Positions 18,501 through 54,592 of a DNA stretch of 64,000 bases are shown here, piece by piece. The translations under genes were made by a program, and so were the position numbers. The DNA comes from Leptogorgia sarmentosa (lineage: Eukaryota): positions 13,578,001 through 13,642,000 of the forward strand of contig OZ210885.1 of NCBI GenBank assembly GCA_964658305.1, written 5' to 3'. Positions within the stretch are counted from its first letter, which is position 1. Each line of letters opens with the position of its first letter. The notes beneath the pieces are model-generated. The model was not told the origin of the DNA. It was given only the letters and a program-made list of their open reading frames with translations, and made no database searches.

Positions 18501-21500
18501 AGTAACACATACTTCGGACATTTCAAATCTTCAAGAACTGCAGGAAATTGTTGACCGATCTCATGAAGTGTGTTGCCCCGAAGTGGCAACATTAAGGTGT
18601 CCGTTGAAAGAATTGATTTTTATAAAAAGTAATTCTAGTCTGTTGGAAAAGACCCCCTTGGATTTTCCAAATTCTAATTTAATTTGTTTTTGTTTTTTTA
18701 CATTATAAGTACCCAAGCAATATGTAAGTAACCAAAAACTTTTTACCTTAATTAAGCCGCTTAACGAAGTTGAGAGCGATTTAAAAATTGTCTTTTGATA
18801 CATCCTGTATTAACGTATCATTTTAGTTACGCTATCTCGTGCCATTGTGCATATATAAAAGTATTGTATGTTAATTGCTCAGGTGATTAGAAATATATTT
18901 TGATTTGCTGACTTTATAAAATGCCGTGAATCTCATTATTTTGCGCCGTGTTGAAATTAAAAACCACTGCATTGTGGTGCATACGCATCTATGCAAGTGT
19001 TTGTTGGAAATATGAAATCTGTGCGTTATTTTTTTAGAGTGAGCAGAGCTTTTGCTGTTTATTGATGTTGTTATCCGTTATACCTAAACTGTAGCTACAT
19101 GTTGAAGCATGTTATCATGAATTTATTAAACTTGTTGTCACAAGCTATTCCAGAGGGGGAGAAGAAATATGAACTGCACCGGTCGGCAGGGCTTGTCCAT
19201 AGAAAGTAACCATTGAATATAGAATAAAATGCTTGCATGCTACAAAGATATAGATGGAAATTAACATAAGAGTGCAATAGAATAAAACGTATGATACAAT
19301 TACGCTCTTCCTGTTCTATTAACCTTTCGCAGGGTGGAACTTGTACAAAAAAATCTTGTACAACACTTATCCGGAACTTTTCACAACAACATTCGATCCC
19401 GATTTACCCTGTACTTATTAATATATTCTTTAGATAGGACGTCTACTTGTCATTCCTAATTTTATCTATTTAAATGCTTGTATAAAAATATTATAATAGT
19501 TACCCTAGTAGTTTGTATATTTTTAGTCAGGCTGACACCGTGCATTGGATCCAGTCCCGTTCTCGTGTATTTAGTATGTTTGTTACTGAATTAAAGTCAA
19601 TATCATAAATGAAAATGATAATGAGGCACTTTAGGTCATAAATCAAGAGAAGAAGCATTTAACTACAATAAGCAACATTTAAGCATTCTTGTCGCAATTG
19701 AGCTGCGTCAACTTTTCACGAGCGTTTTTTATTTGGTTGCGACCTACGCAGTTAACCCGCCCAGCATTAAAATTCAATTTTTTAGTAATGATGAGTGCGA
19801 CAGCGCGTACTGCACTGCCAATGCTTTCGGATTCCCAGTAAATCTGGGAAGTGTTAGAAGACATGTTGTATTCCTGTTGCCGTTTACTCTAACGAGATAT
19901 TTTCCTACAGGAAATTTTTAGAAACAGAACGTTGAAGACCGGGAGGATCCGTGGGGGAAAATTTTTGAAAATTGAATGGCTGCCTGATACTAGAGTACTC
20001 TGTAAATTTTCCTGCATAATATATTCTGCATAAATAGTTTCCCATCTTTCCTAGTTAATTGAAACACTACCTTTTTTCTCTGCAAAATCTGAATGCTCCG
20101 TCCACGGCTTTTTCTGACGATATTCGATTTCATCTGTTTTCTCCGCCAGACGTTTAAGCTCCATTGAATGATGTTCAAGTTTCTCAGCTGCAGAACTTTC
20201 AACCTCTGTAATTTTGCGAAGCAGTGTGGATTGTATGTTATCGACTTTCTCCTTCACTGGATTTATCTGAATAGATAAATTTGATTTAGTAATATTCAAT
20301 TTACGGGCTGAAACAAATTTGAAATCACTCTCAACTTCACAAAGCGGCTTAAGGTGTGTGATGTAATAATAGTTATAATCTAACGTTGTTCGTATAGGCA
20401 ATTGTATGGTTTCGAGTGCAATCTGGAAAAAACATGCACGTGTGAGTTTTTCAAAGACATTGAAAATTGCACGAGTCCAAAGGACGAGTGCAATTTGAAG
20501 TCTTTGAAAATTTCTAAAATTATGTCTTCCTTTAGTGGTCGTCATGTTATCAGTCGCACTAAACGGCCTAAGCACTTACGCATTTCAGGCGTACTCGATC
20601 AAAGGTAAAGGCTGTGTAGTTTCTAGGCGTACTCATTCAAAACCAAAAGGCTTTCTGTACGCGTTATGGGCGTTATTGATCAAAACTGAAGGGCGGCGGG
20701 GGGCTTTCTAAGCGAAATTCTATCTACTAGGTATAGGCAAAACAAAACGACTGTTTTGATATGCATTGATGGAGGTCGACATGGGCTTTCTCGGGCGTTG
20801 TTTACCAATTACCAATGGTGCGAACGTACGTAACCATAATCCATTCTCTTCGGAAAAAGCGCCAGCACAGTAGAGTTTGCGGAAACCGCTTTTTCTGCCC
20901 GAGTAAACGCTTGGCAAGCGTCTTGTTTCTGTTTAAAGTATACATGCAGCTATTTGGGATTCTGCGTATTTGAGCTGTTCAGTATATTTCAAGACGAAAT
21001 ACAATATATTTTTAAGAGTAAGCCTTCGTAGTTGTCTGCGGTGTTTAATGGTGCCTGAGTTAAGGATCACTTGAAAACACGCAAAAGTATTGTGTTATCA
21101 CTAAATATTGTCACGTAGTTATGTACGTTTTAAATCGGCTCAAAAACATTCCATTTTTTATCACGCAATAACGAGCACCGTGCATATACAATCCCAATTA
21201 CAACTCCTTTACGAGGCAACCTGCGGAAATAGATTCATGATTTTACATGTCCCGGAGGGATACAAATTTCCGAAAAGGGGCCAACTTTCCTGTGACACCC
21301 GAGTAAAGCAAAATATGGTCTGCTTGTTGAACGGGTCCATATAATACTAATTTAGCGATTGCTAGGGGGAATATTAGATTTTTCTCAAACCTTTTTGTCT
21401 GTTTCAAACTGCCAAGTTTCACCACTTCGGCGAAGTTCGTCAAGTAATTTTAAGTAACGACCATCAACAAAAACGTCCTTGACTAAGAACGAAAAAGTAT

Positions 21501-23430
21501 ATTATTAAATCAAGCAAATAATACAATAACACAGGTACCGTATTTGCAGTAATAAGGAAGTCCCAGAGTTAGTACTGTTTGGTATGAGAAATTTCCAGTA
21601 TGGGTATTCGGGAAAATTATACTGATATTATCGGTATACCGATTTTTGAACGAGTGACATCAGCTAAGGGCTTAAAAACCTCTAAGTCTAACGCTGTAAT
21701 CGCATGATGAGAATATTTACCAATTCGAAGCATGTAAAATGTTGTGTTCAAGCATAGCCTTAAAAACCGTACTTAATTACAACAACCAATTAACTGATAC
21801 ATTTCAGGCTGACTACACTCGCACATAGTAGCAACATTACAGAACTATCACAGCTTATTGAAGAATTTCGTTCGGTATACATAAAACTTCGATATATGGT
21901 ATAACGAAAAAACCTATACAGATATACGGATATATTAGTTTTCGTACCGATATTTTGGTATATCGGTATACCGAACAGTCCTTCCCAGAGTACAACAGTC
22001 CCTCGAATAAGAGATTCAAGGTGTAGTATTTAAGCACTTCTGACGACTGAAAAAAGTGGTTCAGTAAGTTTTCAAGTATCTTTCATGCAGTTCAAATGGA
22101 GTATATATCACGTTGTTAAACATTGAACACCAGGAAAACAGAAGAATATATACCTAGTGTTTTGTAGTTTGTAATAAAACTAGTTGTGCAATTTAAATGA
22201 GCGTTAAACAAAACAAACGAAATCTTATATAGTCTAAAGTATATATCCTGTTTTGAATCTACGCGCATACGGATCATATATATTAGCGTCTTGAACAGAA
22301 TGAACAGAATGAACAGAATATTATGGTTGCGCGAATTCCAGAAAGCGATCGAGGTAGTCGCGAAAGCTTGTATCATGTATCATGAATCAAAGCACGGCTC
22401 TACAAATATCAATTGATACATGCACTATACCATGCATGGACTGTGTATAGCTACTGATATTACTACAGTCATATTGAAACTGTTGTCATGTAAGTCTATT
22501 CATGCACAGATCGTAGCTAATACTTCACGCAGTATGCAGTAAGTATTCGCATTTAATCACCAATTTTTGTCAAAAAATTCACCTTGAGCAAGATATCTTT
22601 GGCAGTGGATAGCTGAAGCCTATCTTACGGCCAGTGAAATATTATACATGAATGCAATATATCTTTCGATGGATTAATCTTAATCAGCTATAAGAGCAGG
22701 AAGGATAATCTCACTACCTAAACGATAAAACAGATTCGACGTTTCGTTTAGGTAGTGAGATTATCCTTCCTGCTCTTGTTCGTTATCCTGAAGTGCTACC
22801 TACACTGGTCACGTGTGTGTAATTTAAACTGATACCTTTATTCTTCCATTCCAGTAGATCATCACACGCCTGTTTTTCAACATCAGCTGATAAATTAATG
22901 TTTTTCATTAAGAATTCCATGTCTTGAATTGCATCATTGAACATCACATTGGTCCAATTGGAAAAATCACAATGAGCCCACTCATTTCTCACTTTTAACT
23001 TTACATTCTTTGCGTACACTGAGGCACCAGATGTTATGAATGGATCTGCTTCACACATGAGAGTCAGTAAAGCAGAAAGATCCATTGTATCGTCAAAACC
23101 TGTAAACTTTGCCATGAAGGGTTGAACCAACAACTTTGCCAAAGACAGAGCATCTTTCACCGCGTAGTCATATGCGGGAGATTTGTGTACATCATTACCG
23201 TTGATGTTTTTATATTGTAAAGACAACGTTGATGGTGGCAGCGTTTTAATTTGCTTTCCGAAAACTTGTTTATCAATTTCAACAGGTGGTTTACATAAGT
23301 CTTGATACCAGCTCTTCAATTCTGCATCGACAACTTTCCTCAAGGTGGGAGTGACAACTTTGGTAAGGCAAATACCTGTTACAACCCATCTGGATTCTTC
23401 ATCTGTTGTGTAACTGGCACCGCTTGCCAT
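6340..23430 (-). CDS. Gene A: HEPN - coiled coil - NB-ARC (APAF-1-like STAND ATPase) - helical domain - WD40 protein; coding exons 23430-22836, 21482-21391, 20266-20071, 16066-15729, 15188-14546, 13559-13149, 9127-8882, 6558-6340; 3' end not found in window
   Basis: All eight exons have GT..AG boundaries and compatible phases, giving one open frame. Motifs in order: RNEWAH, GMGGLGKT, CLVILDDVW, LLITTRN, CGDLPLAL, FALFPED, LHDLL, GH..W-type WD40. Confidence 0.88.
8882..9127 (-). CDS. Gene A exon 7: end of helical domain and first WD40-like repeat
   Basis: gccag|GCAGACTG gives GRLLSY...VWSLA...ICGLLNGSITIFDLDT; ACAG|gtaggt donor. Confidence 0.82.
13149..13559 (-). CDS. Gene A exon 6: MHD-equivalent (LHD) motif and APAF-1-like helical domain
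   Basis: ttcag|GATCT... gives YRLHDLLLGF then YYFKYLTYHL...FNWLYEKV...SLISDF...QLL; TTAG|gtaat donor; 411 nt as in gene B. Confidence 0.88.
14546..15188 (-). CDS. Gene A exon 5: NB-ARC Walker B, RNBS-B, GLPL, RNBS-D
   Basis: CLVILDDVW, LLITTRN, CGDLPLAL, FALFPED; 643 nt as in gene B; CAAG|gtaaat donor. Confidence 0.92.
15729..16066 (-). CDS. Gene A exon 4: NB-ARC Walker A
   Basis: VVGIRGMGGLGKTILA; tgtag acceptor, ACG|gtatgt donor; 338 nt as in gene B. Confidence 0.92.
16152..17636. mobile_element. Foldback element with about 470-bp TIRs (CAGTACCGTCCTCGAG...) and a minisatellite core; probable TA target (Tc1/mariner-like)
   Basis: The arms are reverse complements; gene B has the empty site (GTTGC-TA-AAGTCTC, about 52130); flanks read TA on one side and a one-mismatch copy on the other. 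Confidence 0.9.
16630..17097. repeat. 22-bp minisatellite (AGTTGACATGTTATGAATGCGA)n, about 21 copies
   Basis: Contiguous near-perfect tandem units with no spacers. Confidence 0.97.
20071..20266 (-). CDS. Gene A exon 3 (predicted coiled coil)
   Basis: ttcag|ATAAATCCA ... AAAAAAG|gtagt; heptad-like E/K/L-rich sequence; conserved in gene B. Confidence 0.8.
21391..21482 (-). CDS. Gene A exon 2 (linker, VKDVFVDGRYLKLLDELRRSGETWQFETDKK)
   Basis: cttag acceptor, AAG|gtttga donor, phase 1 to 0; shares D..VDGR..KL with gene B exon 2; absent from the ORF track. Confidence 0.75.
22692..22777. repeat. Perfect 34-bp inverted repeat with 18-nt loop in gene A intron 1
   Basis: AAGAGCAGGAAGGATAATCTCACTACCTAAACGA / TCGTTTAGGTAGTGAGATTATCCTTCCTGCTCTT. 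Confidence 0.9.
22836..23430 (-). CDS. Gene A first coding exon: DZIP3/hRUL138-like HEPN domain
   Basis: ATG at 23430 with an in-frame TGA just upstream; acceptor ttgcag opens the exon at 23454; RWVVTGICLTKVVTPTLRKVV...DLSALLTL...VRNEWAH (R-x4-H); donor AAAG|gtatc. Confidence 0.8.
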
Positions 23431-23517
23431 TATTCAGGGATCTAAGACGTTCAGCTGCAATCAATGAACTTCATAAAATTTTTATGTACTTCATATTTTA
23501 AATATACATGGCACTAA

Positions 23518-23806
23518 AGGCCCATTTACACTACACAAGAATTGGTGCGGCGCGGTTAAAATGTGGAACGTGTGCCGGTTTTTATTGGCACAGCACCAAG
23601 AAATTTCTGTGCGTAAATTTTTGTTTCTACCCGTGCCGAGACCCAGAATATAGTTGGACAAATGCCGTGCCATACAAAATAATACCAGTTTGCTTCGATA
23701 TACGGGCAAGTGTAAGTGGCTATTGCCGTGCCAATAAAGGCCGCCACAGTTCCACATTTTAGCCGTGCTGCGCCAAATTGAATTCTTGGGTAGTGTAAAT
23801 GGTCTT
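23518..23806. mobile_element. PIF/Harbinger-type MITE just upstream of the gene A first coding exon
   Basis: TIR AGGCCCATTTACACTACACAAGAATT versus AAGACCATTTACACTACCCAAGAATT; TAA TSD. Confidence 0.82.
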
Positions 23807-24380
23807 TAAACGTGAGCCTAATATTTTTATGAAAATTGGGACCCCTCGAATTATTATGTTGGCAATTTTGTAAAACACCTTTAGGCCCGGCACATCTTTA
23901 CAACATTTGATTGAAGAATGTGCCACACTCAAGAGAAAAGTCCAGAATACATTCTTTCAACAACGCTTCGCACAGTTGTTAACAGTGAAAACATCCTAAT
24001 ATTTCACTGATTTCTGTAGTTTCTGTAGTTCAAATGAGACAGGGAGCTTTCACGTTTTCAACTGGGCAGTTTTTAGGAGGCGAAGAATCAGACCGAAGCC
24101 AGTTGAATACAATAACAACGCCTTATATTTGTAAGGCGATCGCGAGTGAAAAATATTGCCCACTCGACACATAGCTAAGTAATATTTTATTTAATAGCTA
24201 TTGTATTTCTTTCCTTGTGTGTGTCATTCATGCCGAGTCATTCTAATGCAATAATCGTTCAAAACTACGCTTAACTTTCGGTAAAACATTGTTTGGCACA
24301 ATACATAATTTCCCTCCGGAAATACGCATATAGTGCACTGAAGGGCATAATAAACAATCACAAAAACTTCCGCTATAATA

Positions 24381-24966
24381 CAGGGTGTCTCAAAAAAAAG
24401 GTAATCGAACTTTGGCATGCCATTGTGCGTTGATTACTGGGTGTATGAACGTGATTTTTGCATGGTCATAAAGATCAGGGTCTTAGCAGTTGAATGACAT
24501 ATTTGTTGTACGATATGGAAGAAAATCAGGCAAATGCGAGCGTGTTGAAAAATCTCGGTGAAAAACGCATTCTTTCACCTCTGTGCCTAATTAAAGCAAT
24601 GCATAACAAAAGAATAATGCAATTCATCGCGAATGTGTCATGGTAACAAAGATTTTATCAGGATTATTAATAATTATGCATAATCAGGTCGATTGTTGAA
24701 GGGAAGGTCGTCATCTTCGAGTCCCAGAGGGAGTTAATTTTGAATAAGTTTAACTGCAATTCTCAGAGGTGAAAGAATGCGTTTTTCACCGAGATTTTTC
24801 AACACGCTCGCATTTGCCTGATTTTCTTCCATATCGTACAACAAATATGTCATTCAACTGCTAAGACCTTGATCTTTATGACCATGCAAAAATCACGTTC
24901 GTACACCCAGTAATTAACGCACAATGGCATGCCAAAGTTGGATTACCTTTTTTTTGAGACACCCTG
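24381..24966. mobile_element. Tc1/mariner-type MITE with about 200-bp TIRs
   Basis: TA-CAGGGTGTCTCAAAAAAAAGG...GAGACACCCTG-TA; the empty site CGCTATAATACAATT is present in the duplicated units near 27000 and 29090. Confidence 0.93.
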
Positions 24967-27900
24967 TACAATTCAATTGCATGCTATCAGATTTAATCTC
25001 AGTCTTGTATTAAGTAACAGTGAATGTTTTATATGCTACAAAGAATGTATCAACCTTTACAGACTGAAATGTGGCAATCATATACTATAGTTTTTAATGA
25101 AACTTGTAACAACCTAATTAGTCAAGAACAGCAAACTTGCTGACAGCGCTACAGACTGAGCGTTGCTAAGTTGCAGTTACATCGCTGAAAACCTGAAAGC
25201 AATAAAGGTCCACCTCTTGTTTGGTCCCTGGTTATTGCATGTTCAAGTCTGTATTGAATAAGCCCGAAGTGAGGATGGAGGCTGCTTTGTTTGGCAATGC
25301 TCAATTCAATTTAGGATTTTCAACAAATCGTGCCAAGTAGCGCTGTATGCATGACATGTCAGCGATTGAACACGCACCAGTCACATGTATGTTCACCATG
25401 ATATAACCACCCAAGAATCAGTTACAGGTAGTAATGAAAAGCTTCAAGCATTTAATAAATATAATGATTTATGACCTCAGCTTTTATAAAGGGATCCAAA
25501 TCTTGTCTAGTTTTATCAGTATCTTGTCTGAATAAATTAGGTTTAATTTACAAACATGTACAAGCGCTCTTGCATGGCAAATATATTAGATAAAGTAAGT
25601 GGTGATATGAGGAGTTTATGTGCAATACAAGGCTCACGAAATCACAGATAATTAAAAGTAAGATCGACATAGAACACCCTCACATAACCTGAGACGATAT
25701 TACACGAATGGTAGAAGCGTAAAGGCTTGTTTGTTTGTCATTGTGTTGCAACGTCATCAGATGGATATTGTGCCTTGAAACGAAATTTGTAATATGGCAT
25801 TTTGATACGTTATTGTGCAAACTGGAAAAAGTTTCAAAACTTTTATTAGTACTCACCGAATTTTGAATTCGCAATGATGTTAAAAGGGCAAACGCTTCTG
25901 TATTCAACTTGTTCGATAAATGTCGTCACATCTCGAGAACGTTCCAGCAATTGTGTTCGCAGTTTTCACTTGAATAATGCTGGGTCGAAGAACAATATAA
26001 CAGGAAGACACTCATGTCACAAGTTGCGTGGGAGAAAAGAGTAGCAATGATTAGTTCAGGTTGAACAGAATTAGATTAGAGATTATTCAATTGCATATTC
26101 ACTGGATTTAATATTTAGCTATTATTTAAAAGCGATGTCTGAACGACCAATAGAAACTTGCCGTATGATGTAAAATACCAAAATATGGTTCGTTTTTGAT
26201 ACGAGTGCGTAGCTGTAAAGAAACGCACAATACAACACAACTTGTGTTGTCAGTAAATGAAATTGTTTTTAACCCTTCATGAATTTAATGTCATCTGGTT
26301 GCATTGTCCCTATTCTTGCGAAAAATAATTATCATATGAATGTAAAATTAATTAAAGGCAGTTCGCATATGAAATTTCGCAAAGATTTTGGCAGTTAAAT
26401 ACACATCACTGAGAGGTAGATGTTACCGTGATTTTCAACCATAAGTAATGTGTTAGAGAGGGAAAGAGTTTTCTAGATATACACGTGAGAATTTTAAAAC
26501 GAAAGAACCCCACAGTTCAAAAAACTGTTTTAAAGAACCCCACAGTTCGGAAAAGTGTTTTGAAATAATTATTTTTATATCTCCTCTGCACGACAAATTG
26601 CTTTGGGTTCATTTCAATGTATTGAATTTTGTCATCCCGTGGTATTGAGATTCTGCCAAGGCCATTCACACGATAAGATTTGTATTATAGCGTATGGAAT
26701 GCAAGCAGTAAACATGCGTGAATACAATGAAATGCCGTCGTAACGTAATCAACAGGTAATGAGAGATCACCACTCTTTTCCATAAGTCAGAACACTAATC
26801 GTATAAGATATTCGCATCTTGTGGATGGGCCTTTATAAATTTATTTCAGTGCAGCTACAATTTTTATAGCATGATATTGAGATTGCATGTGTTATCTGTC
26901 TTGGGACATTCGGTCCATATTGCACTATATTAGACAAAAAATATGCATGTAGTACACTGGAGGGCCGAGGGCATAATAAACAATCGCAAAAACGTCCGCT
27001 ATAATACAATTTACATGCATGCTATCAGTCGATTTAATCTCAGTCTTGTATTAATTAATTAACAGTGAATGTTTTATGCTGGAAAGAATGTATCAACTTT
27101 TACGGACTGACATGTTGCCAATCATATCCTATAATTTTTAATGAAACTTGTAAATAAACTTGAGTGAGGTATACACTGCTAGTATTGAAGTTTGCTTTCG
27201 TATGAATTTGAAGACTTCGTCGCAACCTAATTAGTCAAGAACAGCAAATTTGCTAACAGCGCTACAGACTGAGCGTTGCTAAGTTGCAGTTATATCGCTG
27301 AAAACCTGAAAGCAATAAAGGTCCACCTGTTGTTTGGTCCCTGGTTATTGCATGCTCAAGTCTGTATTGAATAAGCCCGAAGTGAGGATGGAGGCTGCTT
27401 TTTTTGGCAATGCTCAATTCAATTTAGGATTTTCAACAAATCGTGCCAAGTAGCGCTGTATGCATGACATGTCAGCGATTGAACACGCACCAGTCATATG
27501 TATGTTCACCATGATATAACCACCCAAGAATCAGTACAGATAGTAATGAAAAGCTTTAAAGCATTTAATAAATAATGATTCAAGACCTCAGCTTTTATTA
27601 AAAGATCAAAATCTTGTCTAGTTTTATCAGTATCTTGTCTGAATAAATTAAGTTTAATTTACAAACAAGCGCTCTTGCATGACAAATATCTTAGATAAAC
27701 TAAGTGGTGATATGAGGAGTTTATGTGTAATACAAGGCTCACGAGATCACAGATAATTAAAAGTAAGAGCGAAATAGAACACCCTCACATAACCTGAGAC
27801 GATTTTACACGAATGGTAGAAGCGTAAAGGCATGTTTGTTTGTCATTGTGTTGCAACGTCATCAGATGGATATTGTGCTTTGAAAGGAAATTTGTAATAT

Positions 27901-29158
27901 GGGATTCTGTAACGTTATTGTGCAAACTGGAAATAGTCTCAAAACTTTTATTATTACTCACCAAATGTTGAATTCGCAATAATGTTAAAAAGGGCAAACG
28001 CTTCTGTATTCAACTTGTCGTCACATATCGAGAACGTTCCAGCAATTTTGTTTGCGGGTTTCACTCGAATAATGCTGGGTCGAAGAACAATATAACAGGA
28101 AGACACTCATGTCACAAGTTGCGTGGGAGCAAAGAGCAGCAATGATTACTTCAGGTTGAACAGAATTAGATTTAGAGATTATTGAATTGTATAATATTAG
28201 CTGGATTTAATATTTAGCTCTTATTCAAAAGCGATGTCTGAACGACCAATAGAAACTTGCCGTATGAAGTAAAATACCAAAATATGGTTCGTTTTTGATG
28301 AGTTCGTAGCTTTACAGAAACGCACAATACGACACAACTTGTGTTGTCACTAAGTGAAATTGTTTTTAATCCGTCATGAATTTAAAATCATCGGGTGGCA
28401 TTGTCCCTGTTCTTGGGAAATATAATTATCATATGAATGTAAAATTAAAGCCAGTTCGCATATGAAATTTCGCAAAGATTTTGACAGTTAAATACCATGG
28501 ATCACAGTGAAGTAGATGTTACCGTGGTTTTCAAGCATAAGTCGTGTGTTACAGAGGGAAAGAGTTTTGTAGATATACACGTGAGAATATTAAAACGAAA
28601 GCACATATCCTACATTCCTTTGAAGAACCCCACAGTTTGTTTTTTTAAATATTTTTAATATCTCCACTGCACGACAAGACTTAGTTGCTTTGGGTTCATT
28701 TCAATGTATTGAATTTTGTCATCCCGTGGTATTGAGATTCTTCCAAGGCCATTTACACGATAACATTTGTATTATAGCGTCTGGAATGCATGCAGTAAAC
28801 ATGCGTGAATACAATGAAATGCCGTCGTAACGTAATCAACAGGGAATGAGACATCACCACTCATTTCCATAAGTCAGAATACGAATCGTATAAGATATTC
28901 GCATCGTGTGGATGGGCCTTTATATAGGTTTACTTTAGTGTACTAACTAAAATTTTATAGCATGATATTGAGATTGCATATGTGTTATCTGTCTTGGGAC
29001 ATTCGGTCCATATTGCACTATATTAGACAAACAATACGCATATATAGTACACTGAAAGGCATAATAGACAGTCACAAAAACGTCCGCTATAATACAATTT
29101 ACTTGCACGCTGTCAGTCAATTTAATCTCAGCGGTCGGACAATGAATGTTTTATGTTA

Positions 29159-29476
29159 GAGGCTGTTTATATGATCCCGCTTACCTAGGATTCAATGAGG
29201 CGTTAAATGATTTTGAGGTATTGGAAAGTGTCCTACTTAATGATTTGAAGAAAATGTTGAATTCTTGATTGCTTAAGATTTTGTTCTGCTGAAATGTCGT
29301 ACATATAAAATGTTGTTGGGCATTGATACTTTGGTAAAATATATCTTTTCTATTGATCAGTACTAGAAGTGACCTAACTTTGGTTGTTTCGTTTTACAAA
29401 ATGACTCATTTCAATACCTCAAAATCATTTTACGCTTCGTTAAATCTCGGGTAAGCGGGATCATATAAACAGGCCC
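29159..29476. mobile_element. PIF/Harbinger-type MITE
   Basis: TIR ..CTGTTTATATGATCCCGCTTACC with TTA TSD. Confidence 0.85.
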
Positions 29477-30182
29477 TTAGAGGCAATCTATCAATCTATC
29501 GCTGAAAACCTGAAAGCGATAAAGGTCCACCTGTTGTTTGGTCCCTGGTTATTGCATGCTCAAGTCTGTATTGAATGAGCCCGAAGTGAGGATGGAGGCT
29601 GCTTTGTTTGGCAATGCTCAATTCAATTTAGGTTTCAACAAATCGTGCCAAGTAGCGCTGTATGCATGACATGTCAGCGATTGAACACGCATCAGTCACA
29701 TGTATGTTCACCATGATATAACCACCAAAGAATCAGTACAGATAGTAATGAAAAGCTTTAAAGCATTTAATAAATAATGATTCATGACCTCAGCTTTTAT
29801 AAAAAGATCAAAATCTTGTCTAGTTTTATCAGTATCTTGTCTGAATAAATTAAGTTTAATTTACAAACAAGCGCTCTTGCATGACAAATACCTTAGATAA
29901 AGTAAGTGGTGATATGAGGAGTTTATGTGTAATACAAGGCTCACGAAATCACAGATAATTAAAAGTAAGAGCGACATAGAACACCCTCACATAACCTGAA
30001 ACGATATTACACGAATGGTAGAAGCGTAAATGCATGTTTGTTTGTCATTGTGTTGCAACGTCATCAGATGGATATTGTGCTTTGAAAGGAAATTTGTAAT
30101 ATTGCATTTATTGTGCAAACTGAAAATAGTTTCAAAAACTTTTATTAGTACTCACCGAATGTTGAATTCGCAATGATGTTAA

Positions 30183-34600: not shown

Positions 34601-35065
34601 ATATCTCACTGGCATCAAACTGTCTGAAGTTCACAGGGTTCTGTGATAATTTAAATATATAATTTACTTTACAATAACACAATATATTGGTCCGGTGTGA
34701 TTGAGTGATCGTGAATAATAGCAAACCATGTATCATGCAGTGAGTTTTTTACCCCGCAATTTCTTTAGTTACCTCTTACAGATATACGTAGGTCGGCACA
34801 AGCCATGGAGCGCGATTGTGGCTTCATATACTGGAATCTTCCGAGCAATTCTGAACTGAACATTTATCTTGTCTTACTATTCGCTCAACACCAGAATTCT
34901 TAACAATGCGGCCTGAAATGATCAATCCCCCCTCTGGGCCCTCAATTCAAAGTATGTAACATTTATCATTGATTGGAAGGTTTGGAAGTATACTATTTGA
35001 TCTTTTTTTCAGTATTTTTACACCAAAGATTGATCAAGGTAAACCTTGGTTATAAGCATATTAGA
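31670..35065. repeat. Tandem duplication (about 31670-32908 and 32909-35065, with indels)
   Basis: Shared blocks such as CCTCAATAAATACTCTTT, GGCGCTGTAGAACAACACAC and CAGATATACGTAGGTCGGCACAAGCC. Confidence 0.9.
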
Positions 35066-35177
35066 CATGGGAGCAAAAAAATTAGCTCAGAATAAATAAA
35101 ATTGATATGTATCACATCTGACGCTCTTTACATTTGATATTTTGTAATACTTACAAAATGCGCTGCGTTCTAAATTA

Positions 35178-37060: not shown

Positions 37061-37443
37061 CAGACCTGCCAAGGTGGGCTAACGAAAATGAGTGAAACTT
37101 GTCAATGACATTTGTATGGTTTGTGAATTTGGGGCTATTAATTACTTTTTCGAGATTACACTTGCTGGCGAAGGAATAGAGCGGTAACAACAACTCAAAT
37201 AACAACTGTATGTATCCTAGTATAGGCAAAATGCCTACTGATCTATAGTGTCAAAGAGTTATTTTTCTCACTTCTGTACGTCTATTACTCTAGTACATCT
37301 GATGAAAAGTGGGTTAGCGTCATAAACTGGTAAAAATGCGTCATGCGTGACTTTAAGAGTATTTTCGCAATGCGTGTGGGACAGCGTGACCAAAAGCAGA
37401 ATGCGTGACTTTCACGCGAAATGCGTGAAACTTGGCAGGTCCG
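37061..37443. mobile_element. MITE with 13-bp TIRs and an apparent 6-bp TSD
   Basis: CTTATA-CAGACCTGCCAAG...CTTGGCAGGTCCG-CTTATA; subterminal ATGCGTGA repeats. Confidence 0.7.
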
Positions 37444-40400
37444 CTTATATCAATACTTTGATATATTAAACAACACTTGACTGTGCTTCAAACATTATCC
37501 ATAAATCTGAATTTTAAAAATAGAAATGGATAGTACTAGGCTGTCGGAAGTAAATCAATTTGGGGGGGGGGGGCTCAAGAATTTTGCTTTACATACAAAT
37601 GGAATACAATGGCGGGCTCTGAATTTTATGTGAGACATGGATCTGTAGTAACGAAAATGTTGCCAAGTACTGTAAGTACACTATGACTGTTGTATTTATA
37701 CATATTTCGATATTTAAAATTTTAGTGCATGGCCTATCGGGTACGAAATATTTTAGTCATATTTGAATGGGGCTCGAAATTTTTCCCTTACGTTTGTGAG
37801 GGTTGTCAAATTTGTTTAAAAAATCAGGGGCTACCCTCCAGCCCGGGGTTGTAGATACTTTATGACCGGTCCCTTTCCGATCAAGAATGCCACACAAAAT
37901 TGTTTATGCTGAGCAGGTTTCGCGTTATATTTTGCACGATACTATCTATACTGATCCACAGTGAATGTGCAGAAATTAAAAATCATATTCTGGTATATCA
38001 GATGAAGTTTAAGTTGTATGCAGCTGTAGACAGGTGTAGTTAGGATAAAAATTTAGAGATTCTAATGAGGGTAGTATCGCATAGCTCTTGGCTACTAGAC
38101 TGTGATTAATCTCCAATTTGATTTTGAACCTCCAAGATTATATTTTAGAGCAGAGGTCTTAGTGAAATGTGGGCAACTGTGATGTATTTAGTGAAATAAA
38201 GGCAGCAAAAGTCATAACTCTACCTGAATTTCACAAACGACATTTTAACATTTTAAGCCTTAGATAGATGTGTTACCGTCATTTTCTCTTTGTATACAAT
38301 ATGGTTATAAAATATGTTTGACTTTCACGTCTGATGGTAGCACGATAGAGAAATCGAAGTGACATATTGATAGAAACTAAAGGAAAATTCAAGGAATTTT
38401 AAAACTTTTTTCCAAGGCATTCTCAAGTTCTCGCAGGCTGAATTTTAATCTGCCGGAAATTGAAAGGGATTTCCCCTTTTCTCAAGCCATGTTCTGATTA
38501 CACTCAGAGTTTTAATATTTTAGCCAGTCTGTGCTTTATTGTAGCAGTGAGTTTCATGTATTTCGTTCTCTGTCAATATAATCGCAATCATACTACATTG
38601 ACGAGTAATTGAAAGCGGGACAGGGATAACAAACGAGGTGAGTTTGATTTAAATGTCTAGTAAACCAAAGAAATTCCCGTAGTATTTCCCGTCACAGAGC
38701 TGCGAAGATGCCGTGTGTTAGGAAAGCAATATACCCGTTGAAAAGAAAATACGTTAAACATGAACGACACAAATGACGGAACAAATATATTCAACCGTAA
38801 TAAGTTTACAAATAGGTATAATATGCTCGAAATAATGAACGAACTGCGAAGGACCAAAGCCGGAAGCTAAATCCTCATGCTGTACGTTTATATTTTGCCA
38901 TACATGATTGTATTGATTGCCATTTCAAGCGAGTTTATATCCCTATCAGAATTTATTTGCTGAAAACTCCACCAAAACCTAAAAGTTTTCGCTCTGTTAA
39001 CACGGAATTGTTCAATACTGATATTACTAATGCTAATAGAAATTGCTCATGAGGGGAATATGGCTTACTAAGGAAGATTTGCTTACAAATATTTATAGCT
39101 GCATTTCATATGATAAGGTTACAATCATGATTTAATGTTAGTGAAATAATATCAGTAACTACGTAGGCTAAAATTCACCTTCTCATGAAACAGGGTGTTC
39201 ATAACAGTATATACTGTGTCACTTTGGTGAATTCAGTGGCTAATTTTGTCCCCTTCATTAATTATTTTTCCTACAGCTTCTCTAAGGCATTCAGCCCATT
39301 CCATACACATTTCTTGGCAGTGACTGCGGAGCATACATTAATAAATGATATAGAAACTCTAACCCTATCATCATTGACTTTATACTGTAGTACAGCATGC
39401 ATCAAGTTGTATATTGCATCAGTAGTTTGTGACCTAGCTGGTGATTCCTAGCATGGCACATAAGTCCAGAGCATTCCCTGTTACACAGGGCCTTCACTTG
39501 CTCTAAAAACACCACCAAAACCTCTAGCTTTTGCTCTGCTAACCCACATTCTTTCAGTTCAATTATACTATGCTTAATATAAATTTTGTTAACTTGTGAA
39601 GACAATTCTATTATTTGCCCAGCAAACAAGTTTTGTGTTACATATATTTATAGCTGTTTTATATTACAAGAATTCAATCATGTTTTGATGTTACAAGGAT
39701 GTCAATCTCCATCAAAAAGTAAAAACTACACAACCAGAAATTTGACAAAAAAGACATTTTGGAGCATTTTAATACATTGCAGCAACTGTCCCAGCATGTG
39801 TATAATTTTTACTCAATATTAAGACACATTAACTCCCATAAAAAATTTTCACATTGAGTGAAGTTCTATAAAACCATATTGATTTACATACTGATGTTAT
39901 ATTTCTGCAAATTTCAAGTGTCACAATTGAATTTAGAGTGTTTTTACCTCAGATTTAGATCAGATCTACATATTTCATTTGTGTTTCGAAATCATAAGGC
40001 TAATAAGGGATTGGATTAGATTTGACTACATCAATCTGAATTGAGTTACAACTCATTCTGGATTCAATTTTGATTTTGATTTCAATCTGGATGGATTGAA
40101 TTGCTGATTGAAAATAATGCATTGAATGTGAAATCCTAATTTTATTGCAGAAAGAATATGACTGGGCCTGAAACTGCAAAACAAATCATGCATGTTTTTT
40201 GCCCACATGTTTTCATTCCTTAAATTCCATTTTGCATGTACATAAACTGTCAAACTAGACATGAGTTTCTTTCTGCCACTTACTGGAAAAATCCCCCTGC
40301 CTCGAACTCGCACATTTTACTTTAATTTTCATTGTCAGATTTGTTAGCTTATGATAAGTTTATAAACTGTTTTAATCTATAAAACCTGACTGTCAGGAAT

Positions 40401-43192
40401 TGTAACCATGAGATTCCAGACCAGCATTCTGACCGACCGAGCTATAGAAGTCACTTGTTGAGTAATGACTTTAAGTTCATGTAGATTTATCTTGTATTTG
40501 TGCAGATGGTTGGTTGTTATTGCTCAGTTGTTATATAATACTGTCCAAACAAAATCAAACTGCCACAGATACTGCCAAAGAACATTAAGTGTTTTACTTC
40601 CCATCCCTGGTCATGATCAGGTCTTAAACATGGTAGCTACAGTATATATAATCCTCACATTGATTACCTCATTTATTATATATTCCTGTACTTTGCCGAT
40701 AGCTTAGAGTATAGATGGGGGGTGGGGGAGAATTAACAAGGGGAGGGGGCACTGATTTTTTAGTTTGGGTCATATGTTACAATAAAGTAGACCACAACAT
40801 TTAGTTGGTCTATGAAACATCAATGAAATTGTTGATTTCTTGTCAAAATTAACACTGGCTCTGCCCCATTTTCTTATCTCCTTATAGAAATGTGATTGGT
40901 TCAGCTGTTGACATCATCCAACAACAATACATAGTGTGAAAAACTTGATTTTCAACCTGAATCAAGGCTGCCAAATTAGAACATTTAGTTTCCTAAGATT
41001 ATAAAATAAATTAAGGTAAGTTAATTGTCCAGTAACAAACTTCAGAATGTGGTCAGTATTACCAGCGGATAACAGAATTGACAAGCATGAGGTGCTCCTT
41101 GATCGAGAATCAGTGTTGATAGTTAAGGAAAAGTGCACATATTATTTTTATGAGGGTGAACATATTAACATCTTTGTTGTCAATGGTTTTCCAATATGGT
41201 TTTTATTTTAGTCACCTACATATATATAGATTACCTACTTAATGCAATTGTATATAACCCCATGTGTCTCTCATCTCCCACAATATTTCCTGACAGTGAG
41301 CCCAGTATTTCAAAATGTCAAACCTTGTGGTATCATTTAATATGTAGATAGTGGAAAAAAAATTTGCTGGTTGTCGATAATCAGTCATCGCACTCAGACA
41401 TTAACCCAATTTCAACATAATGTTAAAATTAGGATTTCATTTTTTGTGGGTAGTTTCTCTCCTTTTGTATCTTTGATCCTTTTGTATCTGTATTTCTAAA
41501 TCTTCATGATTTTGCTGGATCTTCCCATTCTGTTGCCACAATTACCCATGATCCAAGATCTTGCCATGCTCTTGCCAAGATTGTATTATCATTCAATCAT
41601 GATCTTGTAACTTCCTGGCATAACACATGTTAAAGGCCTCGACAAAATTTTCCCGGAATGTTGCAAGATTCATCGAAGATTTATCTTCATAACGTCTGGC
41701 CATGTGTGATCAGCAGAAGATTGGACGTTTTGAGCGAAGGCCCTTCGTTGGGAGTTACTTAATTACAAATTGCCGCCGGAAGGGGGGCCTTTACTCTAAA
41801 TGTCAAATGTGTCGTTTAAGTAGAACCTTTCTTTGCTGTCTGTTGATGTTGTTATCAGCTTTTCTTTGACGTTCGAGATCTTGTCAAAATCTTTCTGGAT
41901 CATCACATGTTGTTGTTGGCAAAAACAAGCATGGGAAAAGTGGTCTGATGCTTAAAATGTATATACAGATGTATACGGATGTATATATGGTAAATGTATT
42001 TCTATCGTATGCCTTTTGGTGATGAATAGTGGCAGTGCTTGTATTTACTAATAAATTTTGAAATCTTCTTTAATTCTGAATGTGTGTAGTTGCTGTCCAC
42101 CACGAAACGAAAGGCAAAAACCATATTTATTTGCGTTTGTAGGGAGTTCAATTCAAATTTGTCATTTGAGTTCAACGTTAAATTCAACTTTTCTGATGGT
42201 AGGATCGTATTAACGTAGAAAGGTATGTAAGAAACAACATTGACAGATAGATTATAGAATCCTTTATTTTAAGCGTTTGAATAAGGCCCTTAATCGAGCA
42301 AAACGAGCATCACTATGGATTACACCGATATTCTTCTGTCTCGCGTATCCCGGGAGTGTGCAAGTATTCTACTGTGCACTTGAGGCCATCCTTATTGTAC
42401 ACTAAATCTTGTTTCACTGCTACAATATTTAAATAATTGCTACTATCACAGTTGTGCGAAGACTCTTGATTGACAAATTTTTACCATATCCAACAAAAAT
42501 TTTTTTGCCAAAAATACACATCGTAAAAATCGAAGTAATAAAACCTTTTTTTTTGACTTCATAATATTTTCTGATTTCTCTAGGAACAATCTTTACTCCG
42601 GTCGCCTCATGTGGAAATCAACCTAAGTTTTTGGTAAGTGTGTTAGTATATAATTTTTCAACGACTTATCTATCTATCTAGTACCTCTGCAAAACGGACA
42701 TTGTTGGTATTTTAGTTTTTTGATGTGTTGGCGTAACCTATAGCAAAAATATGTAGTGTTGGTTGACCTCATTCATCGTCCGTAATTCATCAACTATTTT
42801 AAATCCTCGCTTCGACATCCCCAGACACGGTTGATCCTACGAGATCATGTCGAGATTCCTTCATGATTCAGTCGTGATTTGTAAGCGGACAACTTTAGTG
42901 TAAAAAAGAGTAACTTAAGTGTAAAAAAGAGTAAGTGGACAACTTTATTCGAACGCTTGAACTGCTGTAGTTGGAGAAAACAGCCCCAATTATTGGCCAA
43001 AATCCACCTGTGTGCAAGCGTTGCTTAACTCATTCACGAGATCCGAAGCAATTCACATCACTGTACAAATTTCACAATATTAAATTTCTAATATTTTTTC
43101 ATTTTCGGACCATTTATATCATTTTTCGCCGCTTCTCTTCAAATTATTTACCATGCGATGCTTACGTGCCTTAGATTTACTGTAAGTGTGTA

Positions 43193-45276
43193 ATTATTAC
43201 GCGAACCACTGAGTATTTTCATAAAATACACTACAACGGTAACTCCGAATAACGTATAAGCATTTTGATTCAACGTTTCGACTTCATTTAGTCATCTTCA
43301 GGATTAGGATTAGGATGTGATTTTTATCTAAGTTTGTTGGCCAATGTTGTAGGGAATCCGTTGTGACGCGAAATTCCTGACTTGCTAAATACATGATTAT
43401 CGCAGTTCTGCACATGCGCAAATGATGTGCGTCATCCACGCTGGCTCATGAATTTCGCAACTGCTGAAGCTACAACAACACGTTTTACTTTGAAATAGAT
43501 TTTTAAGTGATTTTCCTACAAAAATTCTTTACGAATGGCTCCAAATTCAAGTACGGCATCTGTTGCTGACTGTGCTAGTGTTGAAGTAGCGAAGCATCAA
43601 TCGAAAGTCTGTTTCGCGAACAGCCCACGGCCTATATTAAACTCATTGAGTCGTTTCTATCTAATTTAACTAGTTGGTGGTGCGTATATTGTGCGTATGT
43701 TGAAATATCTTCATATTATAGTTGTATGAATGATTCAATGTCATTGACATTGTGCATTTGTAGTTCAAATAATTTACTGAACAGTCAAAACTGATTTAAA
43801 AATATTTAAACTTTTCCTTATAAAACCGCAGCTTAAAACTAGGGCATAGCGATCTACCTTACAATGGTATCCGAAGATACCTACATAGGTAGGCCTAAAA
43901 CGCGTTATACTAGTATAATAATCAACTTTTTTTTGCAAAGATATTCTATATGCAAAATATATTTCTATTTATTTATTATTCATTTCCCGTAAAGTCGCAG
44001 ATTGTTTACTGACTATACTCTATATAAAGTATAATCGATAAAAAACACATATATTCCCGATTGTTTTGTAATATTAGAAATATCAAATATTTTTGATTCT
44101 AGCTTCGGTGTTCGATACAATACATTATTATAGCATTAAACACGATATAAACCGAGATGTGAGCCAAGAAAAGTGGTTTTGATTGAGGTTTTCATCGGGT
44201 CAGGTATTTCGCAAGCGTCATGTATTTCCCGCCTACATACGCGAAATACATGAGCCGTCACGCTTGGTCAAGAATTTCGCTTGACACCGTTCCAAGACAT
44301 AAATTTGCGAATTTTCGTTATCTACCAACATACCACTTCACAGCGAAAACACCATACGACCACACTTTACGGCGAAAACACCATAAAACTGATCCTTGAT
44401 GATTGTACCAAAACTCAATTTTCCGTCAACGGTGATCTTTATAAACAATTTCGAGTTTCGATGGGTTCGCCTTTAAGTCCAACTTTAGCTAACACTCATC
44501 ATGATGGCATTAGAAGACGAAATAATAAAAGACCTTTTCCAAAACGATACTATAAAATTCTATATAAGATAATGTTGATGACATACAGTTCACGCATGAA
44601 GAGTTCGTCGATAACGAGGTAATTTTTTTGGATATCGAATTAACATCTAACGGCACTTCGATTTTTCGTAAGAGCACACACACAGGCCAGTATATCCATT
44701 AATCTAGTTTTACTCCGTGTTCGTACAAAATTGCACGGATTAGGTCACTTGTGCATAGTACTTGCACTGTTTGGTGCAAAGATAAAACACCTAAGGAGTT
44801 TCAAAGTTCCGTGGTTTATAAATTTTCATGTCCTGGGTGCGGCAAAACATACATAGGAAAGACAGACAGATGCCTCTATACAAGACTGAACGAACATGCA
44901 ATCACAGACAAAAACTCAGAGATTGATAAAAACATTAACACTTGCGAACAATTTAACTATCTGAACCTACTGAACAACTGCAACATCATAGACAGGGCTA
45001 AGCATTGGTCAAATCTGCTGTTCAAAGAAAAAAATCATTCATCGACAAAAACCGGAACTGAATCATGGGACTAAAGCATCTAGAGAACTATCGGTTGTCT
45101 TCTGATTAGATATCAAATTACGTCGAGTATATATAACGCATGCACATGAAATAGAACCATTCCTGAATCCTGATGATGACTAAATAAAGTCGAAACGTTG
45201 AATCAAAATGTTTACGTTATTCGGAGGTACCGCTGTTGTGTATTTCATGAAAATACTCAGTGTTTCCCGTAATTAT
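43193..45276 (+). mobile_element. Decayed Penelope-like retroelement with inverted terminal repeats
   Basis: RT fragment FSVNGDLYKQ..VSMGSPLSPTLAN (44281-44622); GIY-YIG fragment VVYKFSCPGCGKTYIGKTDRCLYTRLNEH (44751-45074); about 110-bp inverted repeats at 43193-43305 and 45165-45276 with CTGA[T/A]GA..GAC..GTC-GAAAC hammerhead-like cores. Confidence 0.85.
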
Positions 45277-46630
45277 AAGTAGGCTATGTATATGCATATT
45301 TCAGGATGGACAGGATATGTAAAAAGAACAATGTTTTACTTACGTCTGATCATAGACGATTGTCTATGATCTAAGTGACTTTTAAGCGCTTATTACATTA
45401 ATATGGCACGGCTTGAATGACATAATTAACGAAAGAAATATATTTAATCGTTGTCAGTTTGCAACTATCCATAATATGCTCGAAATACGGAACACACTGC
45501 GAGGCAACGAATATTCGGAGACAGCGTTGAGTGGTCAATACTTTCCACTCGCCTTTCCAATTGAATAAATCTGGCTTGTCTGATTGTTCAAAACTGGGTT
45601 ACTCATATAGATAAATTGCGATAGCAAAGTAGGAAGTAAGATAATATAATATGTTACGGCTTTAAAAGGAGAGATGCGCATGACAAAAATTTTGGTTGAG
45701 TGAAATAATAATGTTGGATACTGCCTTGTAGCTTTACCAGTGGTGGCGCCAAAGGGCGGTGGGGGGAGGTATATGGAAGACAGCGGAGATGCCATTTCCG
45801 ACCATCAAGAGATTCCAAAGTTCTAAAATTTTCTCGTTCAGGCTCAGCGCCAATCCTAGTGGCGGTGTATGACGTCTCGTGAGCTGCGGTTCCCACCCAA
45901 ATAAAACCATTTTCTAACGCCCTGTTAACGTATCATTTCGCCCGGCGAGAGAGGGGGCCAGTGGCCTGTTGATCCCCCCAATTTTTGCAGTGCAACGGGA
46001 AAGAAAATTGTTGGCCTCTCTCTGAAACGTTAAAGCCGCCCCCTAATATTCCATAAGAAAGGGGCCAGAATACCTTTTGCTGCCGAATAATTATTTGATT
46101 TATCGTTATTGCAGCAAAATGTTTCAATTTATATGAGACCTCGATGCACTCGAGTCTCATATACTCACCCCACGTCTTATCTACAAATTACTGAATAATT
46201 ACATATAATTGTCAAAGGCAGTGGATACTAGATTATGTCAACAAACAGCAAAAGTTCTACTAATTACCTAAAGGATAAACTAGGATTCGATGTTTTGTGC
46301 AACGGCCCTCGGGCATTTTAACACACACTAATTTTTGACTATTGGACTTTGCTTGAAGCATTAATTCTTATTGCATTTGTTCAGCTAGTGGGCAGAACTT
46401 TAGTTGATGTTGTTATTCGGTAGCGGTACCTATATAGCTACTGGCCACATGTTGAAGTTTGTTACCAGATGATTCCATACAATTATTTTCAAAGAAACTT
46501 CTACTTTCACATTTTTGTAAAACACTCAAAATGTCAGAAAGTAATTATGTCTGTACTGTTTACAAAAGCTTTGTGCTTTGGTAGCTAAAATTGTAACACC
46601 ATTATTTTATGTTTACTTCATAGAACGGTA

Positions 46631-47216
46631 ATGATATCAGAGGAAGAACAACATTGGGTTTTAGTTGGCATTGCCTTTACCAAAGTTCTTGCACCTGCAT
46701 TGAGGAAAGTTGTCGCCACTGAACTTGGGAAGTGGTATAATTCTTTATGCCAACCACCTGATGAAATTCACAAGCAAGATTTCGCAGCATACAGAAGGAA
46801 GAAATTACCCCCTTCCACCCATAACCTACAATATGAAAACATTAACAACAACATTATTCACAAGCCTACTAAATCAGCTTATGATTATGCTGTTAAAGAT
46901 CCTGTCTCGTTGGCGAAACTATTCGTCACGGACTTTATGGCACATTTCACTGGATTTGATGAAACCATGGATATGTCAGCACTTTTGACTATTATCGGCA
47001 AGGCAGCCCCTTTTGTGTCTTCTGGTGCTGCAGCTGAAGCAAACAAAGTTCGGTCGGACATCAGAAACCCATGGGCTCATTGTAACATCTCTGAATGGAC
47101 AGTAGACATGTTCAATGACTCGTTTCAAGGAATGGAATCTTTGGTCAAAATATTAAATTTACCAATAGCTGACGAAAAAATAATTTGTGATGAACTAGAT
47201 TTCTGGAATAAAACAG
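46631..47216 (+). CDS. Gene B first coding exon: DZIP3-like HEPN domain
   Basis: Acceptor tag at 46621-46623; HWVLVGIAFTKVLAPALRKVV...DMSALLTI...IRNPWAH; ACAG|gtact donor. Confidence 0.8.
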
Positions 47217-48245: not shown

Positions 48246-48340
48246 ACATTCTTGTTGATGGTCGTCACGCAAAACTAATTGCAGAAAGTGTAGCTGAACT
48301 TTGCCGTTGTATCAAAAACTACGATTTGGACGCCACAAAG
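48246..48340 (+). CDS. Gene B exon 2 (linker, DILVDGRHAKLIAESVAELCRCIKNYDLDATK)
   Basis: tccag acceptor, AAG|gtttga donor, phase 1 to 0. Confidence 0.75.
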
Positions 48341-49346
48341 GTTTGAGGAACTTTTGATGTTTCATTTAACAGTCGTTGAATAAGTAGGAAGACGCTGTTC
48401 AAATTAAAATAAGACATGTTTCAAATGCGAGCCAATGCAAATTTTCAGCGTGGGAACGCAATACTTAGAACGAAGCGTGTACCGATGAATAAAACACACT
48501 ACATATCAATTACTGATAAATAAAATACTCTTTTAGGGGGAAAAAAACTAGCCCAAGGGGCTGGGACATCCCATTAAGCAAAACAATTTAGCCATTCTCA
48601 TAGGCAAGAGATAAACCTAAATTTTGATAGATAACAATTATTTTTCCTTGAAAAATTGCTATTTCAACGTTGAACTACAAATTTCTGAAAAGTTTAGAAA
48701 CTAGGAAACTTGCATATCAAATTTCAATAGACCTTATGTGTAATGTCGTCACAAGAATTTTAGCTCGTATTCGACTTTACATCTGTGTCGACCAAGCATT
48801 GAAATATTTCGTCCTCACAGTGACGTAAAAATTAATCGATGGCAATTCGAAAATTTTGAGAAAAAAGGGCCAATTTATAAGAGAGGAAAAAATAGGTACG
48901 CATGTGGGTAGCCCGTCAAAGATCGGCGAAGCAATTTTCCCTTTCTCTAAAATCCTAACCATTAAAGTCAGGAAAATATTGATAATGCTCAGACGGTTGA
49001 GCACACGGGCGTGCGTCGCAGTTCAAACAAACCAAGTCCACAGAGTTTCCGTCATCTCTCTTCAGCTAGCCACAATGCGTAGTTTCTGTCGCGAGGATTC
49101 TTGACTTGTTCAGTAATTGCCTTCAAGTTGTCCTTTAGTAATTCTATTTAATTTGGGAATTAACTGTTTAAGCGACTGGCTTCTGTTTCTCATCTTTGCT
49201 GGGCGAGAGGTGCATATAACTCCATCTTTTATCGACTAGAGCACTCCTTTTTTAATGTCTTTGAAAAACTCACTCGTGCATGTTTTTTTCCAAATTGCAC
49301 TCGAAACCATACAATTACCTATACTAATAACGTTAGATTATAACTA

Positions 49347-54563: not shown

Positions 54564-54592
54564 TGGCTCCCCTAAATTGGTACAATTTACAT

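Follow-up and report, generated by a model that had tools for sequence, protein, structure and literature searches.

The window analysed here, a stretch of 64,000 nucleotides (nt) from Leptogorgia sarmentosa (contig OZ210885.1, positions 13,578,001 to 13,642,000), is intron-rich animal DNA with a GC content of 32-50%, and it contains two paralogous genes of HEPN-like/NB-ARC/APAF1_C/WD40 type arranged head-to-head as an inverted pair, gene A on the minus strand and gene B on the plus strand (Table 1). Both genes share one domain order, in which a helical head encoded by a single exon is followed by a short linker exon, an exon with a predicted coiled coil, and then NB-ARC, APAF1_C and WD40. The eight GT-AG exons of gene A (23430 to 6340) form a single open frame of 913 amino acids; the gene likely extends to the left of the window, and tblastn found no further exon in positions 1-6340. 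Gene B runs from 46631 beyond the window end. An acceptor-like AG just before its first exon means that the true start may lie further upstream, and no upstream coding exon was found in 36000-46600 with the N-terminus of the related protein P0012 as query (best score 11). The coding starts are 23 kilobases (kb) apart, and the two bodies point outward as inverted repeats, with both heads in the 29-kb spacer between them. The NB-ARC profile (PF00931) matched above its cut-off in exons 4 and 5, with the P-loop GMGGLGKT and the Walker B motif ILDDVW present in both genes, and the APAF1 helical domain (PF17908) and WD40 (PF00400) were matched in A. Neither head matched the CARD of canonical Apaf-1: the proteins would work like Apaf-1 but are not Apaf-1. 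The closest named relatives come from Dendronephthya and Paramuricea, which makes an octocoral origin likely.

In a self-BLAST the two genes were collinear, introns included, over the stretch that begins at A 20466 / B 49249 and ends at A 8984 / B 64000, with 353 mismatches in 5,832 aligned columns (6.1%). Over this body (exons 3-7) the synonymous divergence (dS) was 0.081 and dN/dS 0.53, with identities of 58/65 residues in exon 3 (dS 0.052), 108/112 in the P-loop exon 4 (dS 0.035), 196/214 in exon 5 (dS 0.088), 117/136 in exon 6 (dS 0.116) and 36/37 in the available part of exon 7 (dS 0.12). The heads, in contrast, share 109 of 191 amino acids (57%) and 63.5% of nucleotides, with a proportion of synonymous differences (pS) of 0.70 (bootstrap 0.60-0.79), a dS of 2.0 and a dN/dS of ~0.17, and exon 2 is identical at 10 of 27 residues (pS 0.41, 0.19-0.62). 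None of the 1,353 nt of intron 1 could be aligned, and only the last ~200 nt of intron 2; large parts of introns 3, 5 and 6 are also unalignable, owing to later insertions. Synonymous divergence is thus far from uniform along the genes, and the original prediction described the pattern accurately, including bodies alignable from intron 2 onward, four amino-acid changes in the P-loop exon, heads about half identical, a barely alignable exon 2, unalignable sequence in intron 1 and at the start of intron 2, and intron phases of 1 after exon 1 and 0 after exon 2 in both genes. Divergence also varies within the body (variance p = 0.0005), which we rejected as proof of several tracts because exons and introns differ in constraint.

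The last detectable homology, at A 20466 / B 49249 (predicted near 20470/49250, within a repeat-like segment), lies inside a palindromic repeat resembling a miniature inverted-repeat transposable element (MITE). This repeat sits at the same place in both genes, A retaining ~45 nt more than B, and further copies of it appear as loose contig ends. Since introns elsewhere lose alignability by insertion, the switch can only be bracketed to intron 2, between A 21390 and 20466.

Among 190 retrieved proteins, two (P0001 and P0012) have the head, linker and APAF1-type body together. In exon 1, P0001 is closer to A (134/198, versus 112/195 to B) and P0012 is closer to B (136/195, versus 115/198 to A); likewise, exon 2 of A is identical to P0001 at 18 of 30 residues and does not match P0012, and exon 2 of B is identical to P0012 at 19 of 31. 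From exon 3 on, however, both A and B are closer to P0012 (in exon 4, 87-89 of 112 residues versus 67 for P0001). A head tree of 30 rows joined A with P0001 (support 99/97) and B with P0012 (100/99); with 12 of these rows the values were 98/97 and 100/99, and an A+B clade was rejected by the approximately unbiased (AU) test (p = 0.0003). The body tree, built from 13 of 19 NB-ARC rows after six distant or partial ones were set aside, grouped A with B (100/100), joining P0012 and P0033 at 97/93, and rejected both A+P0001 (AU p = 5e-7) and A+B+P0001 (p = 0.017). Informative sites behaved in the same way: those pairing A with P0001 and B with P0012 outnumbered those pairing A with B and P0001 with P0012 by 23:2 in exons 1-2, and the ratio was reversed, 2:56, in exons 3-6, a switch at the exon 2/3 border with a Fisher p of 5e-16.

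Because the head and body trees conflict, gene A is a chimera of an A-lineage head and a body nearly identical to that of gene B. The trees suggest that the B lineage donated the body, since the shared body groups with P0012/P0033 in exon 4 alone (95/92), and 44 sites in exons 3-4 join A+B with P0012 as compared with 12 for P0001. The split between the heads would be old, the A and B lineages predating the separation from the source of P0001 and P0012. Our preferred reading, with a probability of roughly 0.7, is that A was made by long-tract ectopic gene conversion (or template-switch repair) between two old, inverted paralogs, in which everything in A from intron 2 on was overwritten with sequence of the B lineage. 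Two features of ectopic conversion, a regional excess of identity that includes introns and discordant trees, are seen here; the 3' end of the homogenised tract lies outside the window.

The original prediction had envisaged a recent duplication or conversion of the body grafted onto a separate, older HEPN cassette. Its duplication-or-conversion part agrees with the dS values and the trees, whereas the separate cassette is not supported: P0001 shows the full A-type head/NB-ARC/WD40 layout, and since the A-type head already had a body of its own there, conversion between paralogs of the same architecture is likely. It was also the body that moved, and not the effector module as had been proposed. 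Nor were conserved intron phases needed: the paralogs have intron 2 in common, and any in-register exchange there keeps the frame automatically, which makes the phase match trivial. Phase-dependent shuffling of effectors in this family likely occurred earlier, at intron 3. In exons 7-8 the HEPN-type genes group together (100/100), and a single NB-ARC clade for them was not rejected (p = 0.127), while the same NB-ARC-WD40 body carries a DED head in P0029 and a Death head in P0041. The junction of this older swap would be the phase-1 intron 3 before exon 4, from where similarity to the DED-type proteins begins. In a survey of the head (387 proteins at E <= 0.001, with 18 of 149 new representatives scanned for domains), the same head type was found preceding NB-ARC-TPR, nSTAND3-ankyrin and NACHT-LRR bodies, following Roc-COR and standing beside HEPN_DZIP3.

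A comparable tract is seen between the two reference proteins. The NB-ARC regions of P0001 and P0012 are ~50% identical, yet 67 of 70 residues are alike in exon 6 (reached in 0 of 5,000 shuffles; 39-58 of ~72 residues in the 34 other pairs not made up of A and B), and the two are sisters for exon 6 (100/99) and for exons 7-8 (99/96), a relationship that exons 1-5 do not show. Provided that these records are not assembly chimeras, their sequences hold a second 3' homogenised tract with its 5' edge in exon 6, and because it again links an A-type with a B-type gene, conversion is likely a repeated process that leaves the heads untouched. We also observed that P0033, from Paramuricea, has a B-like exon 3 and NB-ARC behind a third type of linker, similar to that of HEPN-TPR genes, with its head exon unannotated; this may be another exchange in intron 2.

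For other individuals, Logan contigs of 6 of 17 listed runs were aligned to the window; three of these (X8, X9 and X10) are called RNA-like here solely on the basis of exon-centred cover and GT..AG joints, none being on record as RNA. The joints between B exons 1-2, 2-3, 3-4 and 4-5 were found in all three. In one contig of X8 (depth 19.8), an A-type exon 2 is joined to an exon 3 of B-like sequence. The depth suggests that this contig belongs to a variant (variant C; 49950-52290) seen in X4, X8, X9 and X10, whose exon 3 differs from that of B at 21 of 162 nt (~87% alike), whose exon 4 begins A-P-Y as in P0001 and whose intron 3 can be aligned for 9 nt only. With A-type head and B-like exon 3 thus combined at ~13% divergence, the first switch may predate the 6% divergence of A and B. 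Contigs of shared introns had a depth of 2376 in X1, compared with ~1200 for A-only introns, and of 98-112 compared with ~45 in X4, a hint that the A and B bodies are even more alike in those individuals; a simple model of one copy each is at odds with the B-only intron contigs of X4 (74-98), and depth is no measure of copy number.

In the HEPN superfamily an R-[DNH]-x3-H motif is conserved family-wide, an acidic-x3-R/K motif occurs in some families, and the domain needs to dimerise (10.64898/2026.05.28.728550). The first motif is present in both window heads, as RNEWAH in A and RNPWAH in B, in line with the R-x4-H noted originally, and its R and H occur together in 152 of the 162 family heads that cover it. 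At the N-terminal motif A has D-x3-R, and in B, as in P0012, His takes the place of the Arg found in 116 of 128 aligned heads, such that the two heads would differ at a predicted catalytic position. The HEPN_Swt1 profile gave an E-value of 0.054-0.068 for A, below the cut-off, and nothing for B, with weak matches in 12 of 27 members; one homolog among the 18 scanned, P0088 (36% identical to B), passes the DUF4559/CXorf38 cut-off and links the window heads to that family. The Atlas points in this direction too: its top match scored 0.97, DUF4559 being found on 11% of that cluster, with a recognition score below the 2300 mark. The predicted head structure is all helical (predicted local distance difference test 92.9) and its structural matches include the C-terminal domain of Swt1 (Z 6.8, root-mean-square deviation 3.2, 113 aligned residues), Csm6 (Z 6.0) and the AF0298 HEPN (Z 5.6), amid unrelated bundles that reach Z 8.2; a Foldseek search of the model against the PDB returned no match at E <= 0.001.

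Several observations weigh against the conversion reading and the identity of its heads. The longest identical run between A and B is only 95 nt (p = 0.62), which gives no direct sign of a tract converted very recently, and a partial duplication replacing the body of A leaves the same result as conversion. No Pfam HEPN profile matched either head above its cut-off; their HEPN identity is indirect, and their activity as RNases is a prediction. The exact joint of A exons 2 and 3 was not found among 15 of 16 joints examined, the X8 contig that carries exon 2 of the A type seems to represent a third variant and not A itself, and none of the listed contigs bridges the junction in DNA. Orthology was judged from one A-type and one B-type protein among the 190, and the records of both may be assembled transcripts. 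Support for the direction drops to 66/62 in exon 5 alone, and the NB-ARC of P0001 sits on a long branch (0.58). This unplaced branch would suit a different direction, in which the A head had long been on a B-like body, P0001 is the recombinant with a foreign NB-ARC, and A was perhaps the donor; variant C, in which exon 2 of the A type seems to precede a B-like exon 3 that diverged before A and B did, points the same way. The exon 4 grouping and the exon 3-4 sites given above favour the B lineage as donor, as does the A-P-Y start that variant C shares with P0001, and we consider the alternative direction unlikely.

A graft, in which a recent partial duplicate of the B body landed behind an unrelated, body-less HEPN cassette with the help of matching phases, would be in keeping with a head that is a mobile one-exon module on several body types and with the resemblance of A exon 2 to the linker of HEPN-STAND-TPR genes (14/30 to P0002); it is made improbable by the affinity of A exons 1 and 2 to P0001, which has an NB-ARC-WD40 body, and by the common ancestry of exons 7-8. 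Could the pair instead be a single locus whose two alleles or haplotypes were wrongly joined, one of them inverted, during assembly? Alleles of marine invertebrates can conceivably differ by 6% and by insertion polymorphisms, and the junction lacks a spanning contig among those listed. Yet A-only and B-only introns are both covered in the single DNA-like run X4, the A-only intron 2 occurs in X1 in two allele-like depth classes with shared contigs at ~2x the summed depth (a hint only), and both head types have separate relatives, leaving an artefact very improbable. A recent duplication of the whole gene, after which the head adapted at great speed, would suit the fast evolution of which immune effector domains are capable, but it is refuted by dS and by the head tree: synonymous sites of exon 1 are near saturation, intron 1 is unalignable, the head dN/dS is low and each head has its own closer relative elsewhere.

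Table 1. Exons of genes A and B and repeats associated with them (window coordinates).
Feature	Position	Strand	Remarks
A exon 1, CXorf38/Swt1-like HEPN head, A type (predicted)	22836..23430	-	D-x3-R at 10-14, RNEWAH at 148-153
A exon 2, A-type linker	21391..21482	-	AG/GT ends, open frame
Palindromic MITE-like repeat with the homology edge (20466)	20364..20511	.	hairpin centre 20465-20495
A exon 3, linker with predicted coiled coil; homogenisation starts with this exon	20071..20266	-	
A exon 4, NB-ARC P-loop	15729..16066	-	Pfam NB-ARC
A exon 5, NB-ARC and winged helix	14546..15188	-	
A exon 6, APAF1_C helical domain	13149..13559	-	
A exon 7, beginning of WD40 region	8882..9127	-	
A exon 8, WD40	6340..6558	-	
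B exon 1, HEPN head, B type (predicted)	46631..47216	+	RNPWAH at 145-150; His replaces conserved N-terminal Arg
B exon 2, B-type linker	48246..48340	+	X8, X9 and X10 have GT..AG joints on both sides (exons 1 and 3)
Shared repeat in B, ending short of its hairpin (homology edge)	49249..49352	.	
B-only foldback insertion, 457 nt	49346..49802	.	skipped in contigs of 3 of 4 runs (X4, X8, X10)
B exon 3	49907..50111	+	
B exon 4, P-loop	52218..52555	+	
B exon 5	53108..53750	+	
BEL/Pao long terminal repeat (LTR) retrotransposon in B intron 5	54182..61343	-	identical 383-nt LTRs, 5-nt target duplication
B exon 6	62205..62615	+	
B exon 7, cut by window end	63865..64000	+	

Gene B carries an 8-nt deletion in exon 7 relative to A, which shifts the frame before the WD40 repeats; as exon 7 has no cover in the run contigs, the deletion may be private or an error. 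Derived amino-acid changes are not in excess in B (18 vs 13, 10 unpolarised), giving no sign of long decay. The BEL/Pao element in its intron 5 is young and absent from A, with one stop-to-stop frame of 2,090 codons on the minus strand. Exon 3 is flanked by a 40-nt inverted repeat in both genes (18752-18791 / 20313-20352 in A; 49818-49860 / 51336-51378 in B), which in A intron 3 adjoins an antisense frame of 141 codons (18283-18705) without Pfam match; together they are possibly an inverted fragment of another gene. An apparent opposite-strand joint at 18800/20313 was rejected as an effect of a stretch end and this repeat. Also in intron 3, A alone has an insertion (16151-17637) in which inverted arms of 472 nt (94%) enclose an array of 22-nt tandem repeats (16631-17098), and in intron 6 a stretch of its own (9940-10900) that looks like decayed coding sequence and is presumably Helitron-like. 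The spacer upstream of A holds a foldback element (24379-24968; arms of 205 nt, 98%), a 1.9-kb unit present twice with a 0.7-kb third part (25110-30182; 90-95% alike), a second local duplication whose pair is more diverged (31687-35061), and, between short inverted repeats at 43193-45276, reverse transcriptase and GIY-YIG frame fragments (weak Pfam matches) that we take to be Penelope-like. Neither duplication has similarity to the family proteins.

A history that would accommodate these observations begins with an APAF1-like NB-ARC-WD40 gene, elsewhere equipped with DED or Death heads, which gained a head of HEPN, linker and coiled coil at the phase-1 intron 3. A duplication of the HEPN-headed gene would then have founded the A and B lineages, at a time when the species had not yet separated from the source of P0001 and P0012. 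The outward-facing bodies, being inverted repeats, could keep exchanging sequence in tracts that stop short of the heads, in intron 2 here and in exon 6 in P0001/P0012, the first head/body switch possibly being older than the present 6% divergence. By analogy with the established behaviour of Apaf-1 and of HEPN dimers, the proteins may act as STAND receptors, in which a ligand at the WD40 repeats would release NB-ARC oligomerisation and gather the HEPN heads as an RNase. Conversion would in this way provide two heads, unlike at the predicted catalytic position, with compatible oligomerisation bodies. A more speculative idea, and a long shot, is that the pair forms a germline head-swapping device: bodies kept alike by conversion would let the 29-kb spacer flip, so that either head occurs on either WD40 sensor within populations, and the catalytically complete A heads could co-assemble with the altered B heads on an apoptosome-like RNase ring.

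Partial conversion, exchange of N-terminal domains on Apaf-1-like bodies and HEPN-STAND-WD40 receptors are already known, and the A/B pair is a variant of known processes. No report of the pair, or of conversion between octocoral STAND genes, was found in the literature searched, which left most subscription journals outside its scope. What the pair adds is a case in which the re-pairing of effector heads with switch and sensor bodies in cnidarian STAND receptors can be traced to a donor lineage and a recipient, the breakpoint being bracketed. The exchange is polarised, likely recurrent and head-sparing, whereas a coral genome paper called gene conversion very rare (PMC10236652). It also points to an apoptosome-type scaffold with a predicted RNase in place of the caspase-recruiting domain, in two head versions whose difference at the predicted catalytic position makes head-versus-body function directly testable.

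The nearest parallel is found in the zebrafish NLR-B30.2 genes, in which low dS across groups in one part of the gene and dS >1.5 in another were explained by partial gene conversion (PMC4852459), and which share with A and B domain-specific trees and a contrast in dS within the gene. There, however, the C-terminal B30.2 is shared and the NACHT stays with the N-terminal domain, among hundreds of genes, whereas in our inverted pair the NB-ARC was overwritten too and head and switch were re-paired. Podospora NWD (HET-NACHT-WD40) genes, which likewise encode STAND-WD40 receptors, also exchange sequence with one another, perhaps through ectopic conversion, but the exchange described for them concerns the WD repeats and not a tract spanning linker, NB-ARC and introns (PMC13449251). 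In Nematostella, amphioxus and sea urchin, the CARD of Apaf-1/CED-4 paralogs is replaced by DED, Death or TIR (PMC2246300); A and B similarly have an NB-ARC-WD40 body with an exchanged N-terminal domain, although theirs is a predicted HEPN-like enzyme and the heads listed in that work are adaptors, no HEPN being named among them. Plant sensor/helper NLR pairs also stand head-to-head, with a short shared promoter and an integrated decoy in one partner (PMC12258605), unlike A and B, which have distant coding starts and the same layout. Coral receptors combine DZIP3-HEPN/NACHT/WD40, DZIP3-HEPN/NB-ARC/TPR, or DUF4559/NACHT with ankyrin, LRR or TPR (PMC10236652, PMC8260672), and the window genes resemble these anthozoan-expanded proteins in uniting a HEPN effector, a STAND NTPase and a repeat sensor. 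Among 15 of the 27 DUF4559 rows in Additional file 16 of PMC10236652, one of the file's rows being DUF4559,NB-ARC alone, a CXorf38-like head on NB-ARC-APAF1_C-WD40 is absent; other rows may have it. CXorf38 itself was placed among Swt1-like HEPNs, predicted to be active and found fused to STAND NTPases in cnidarians (PMC3710099), and the heads of A and B share with that family the R-N-x3-H motif and the STAND NTPase fusion, differing from it in that they lack a direct Pfam DUF4559 match and are linked to it through P0088.

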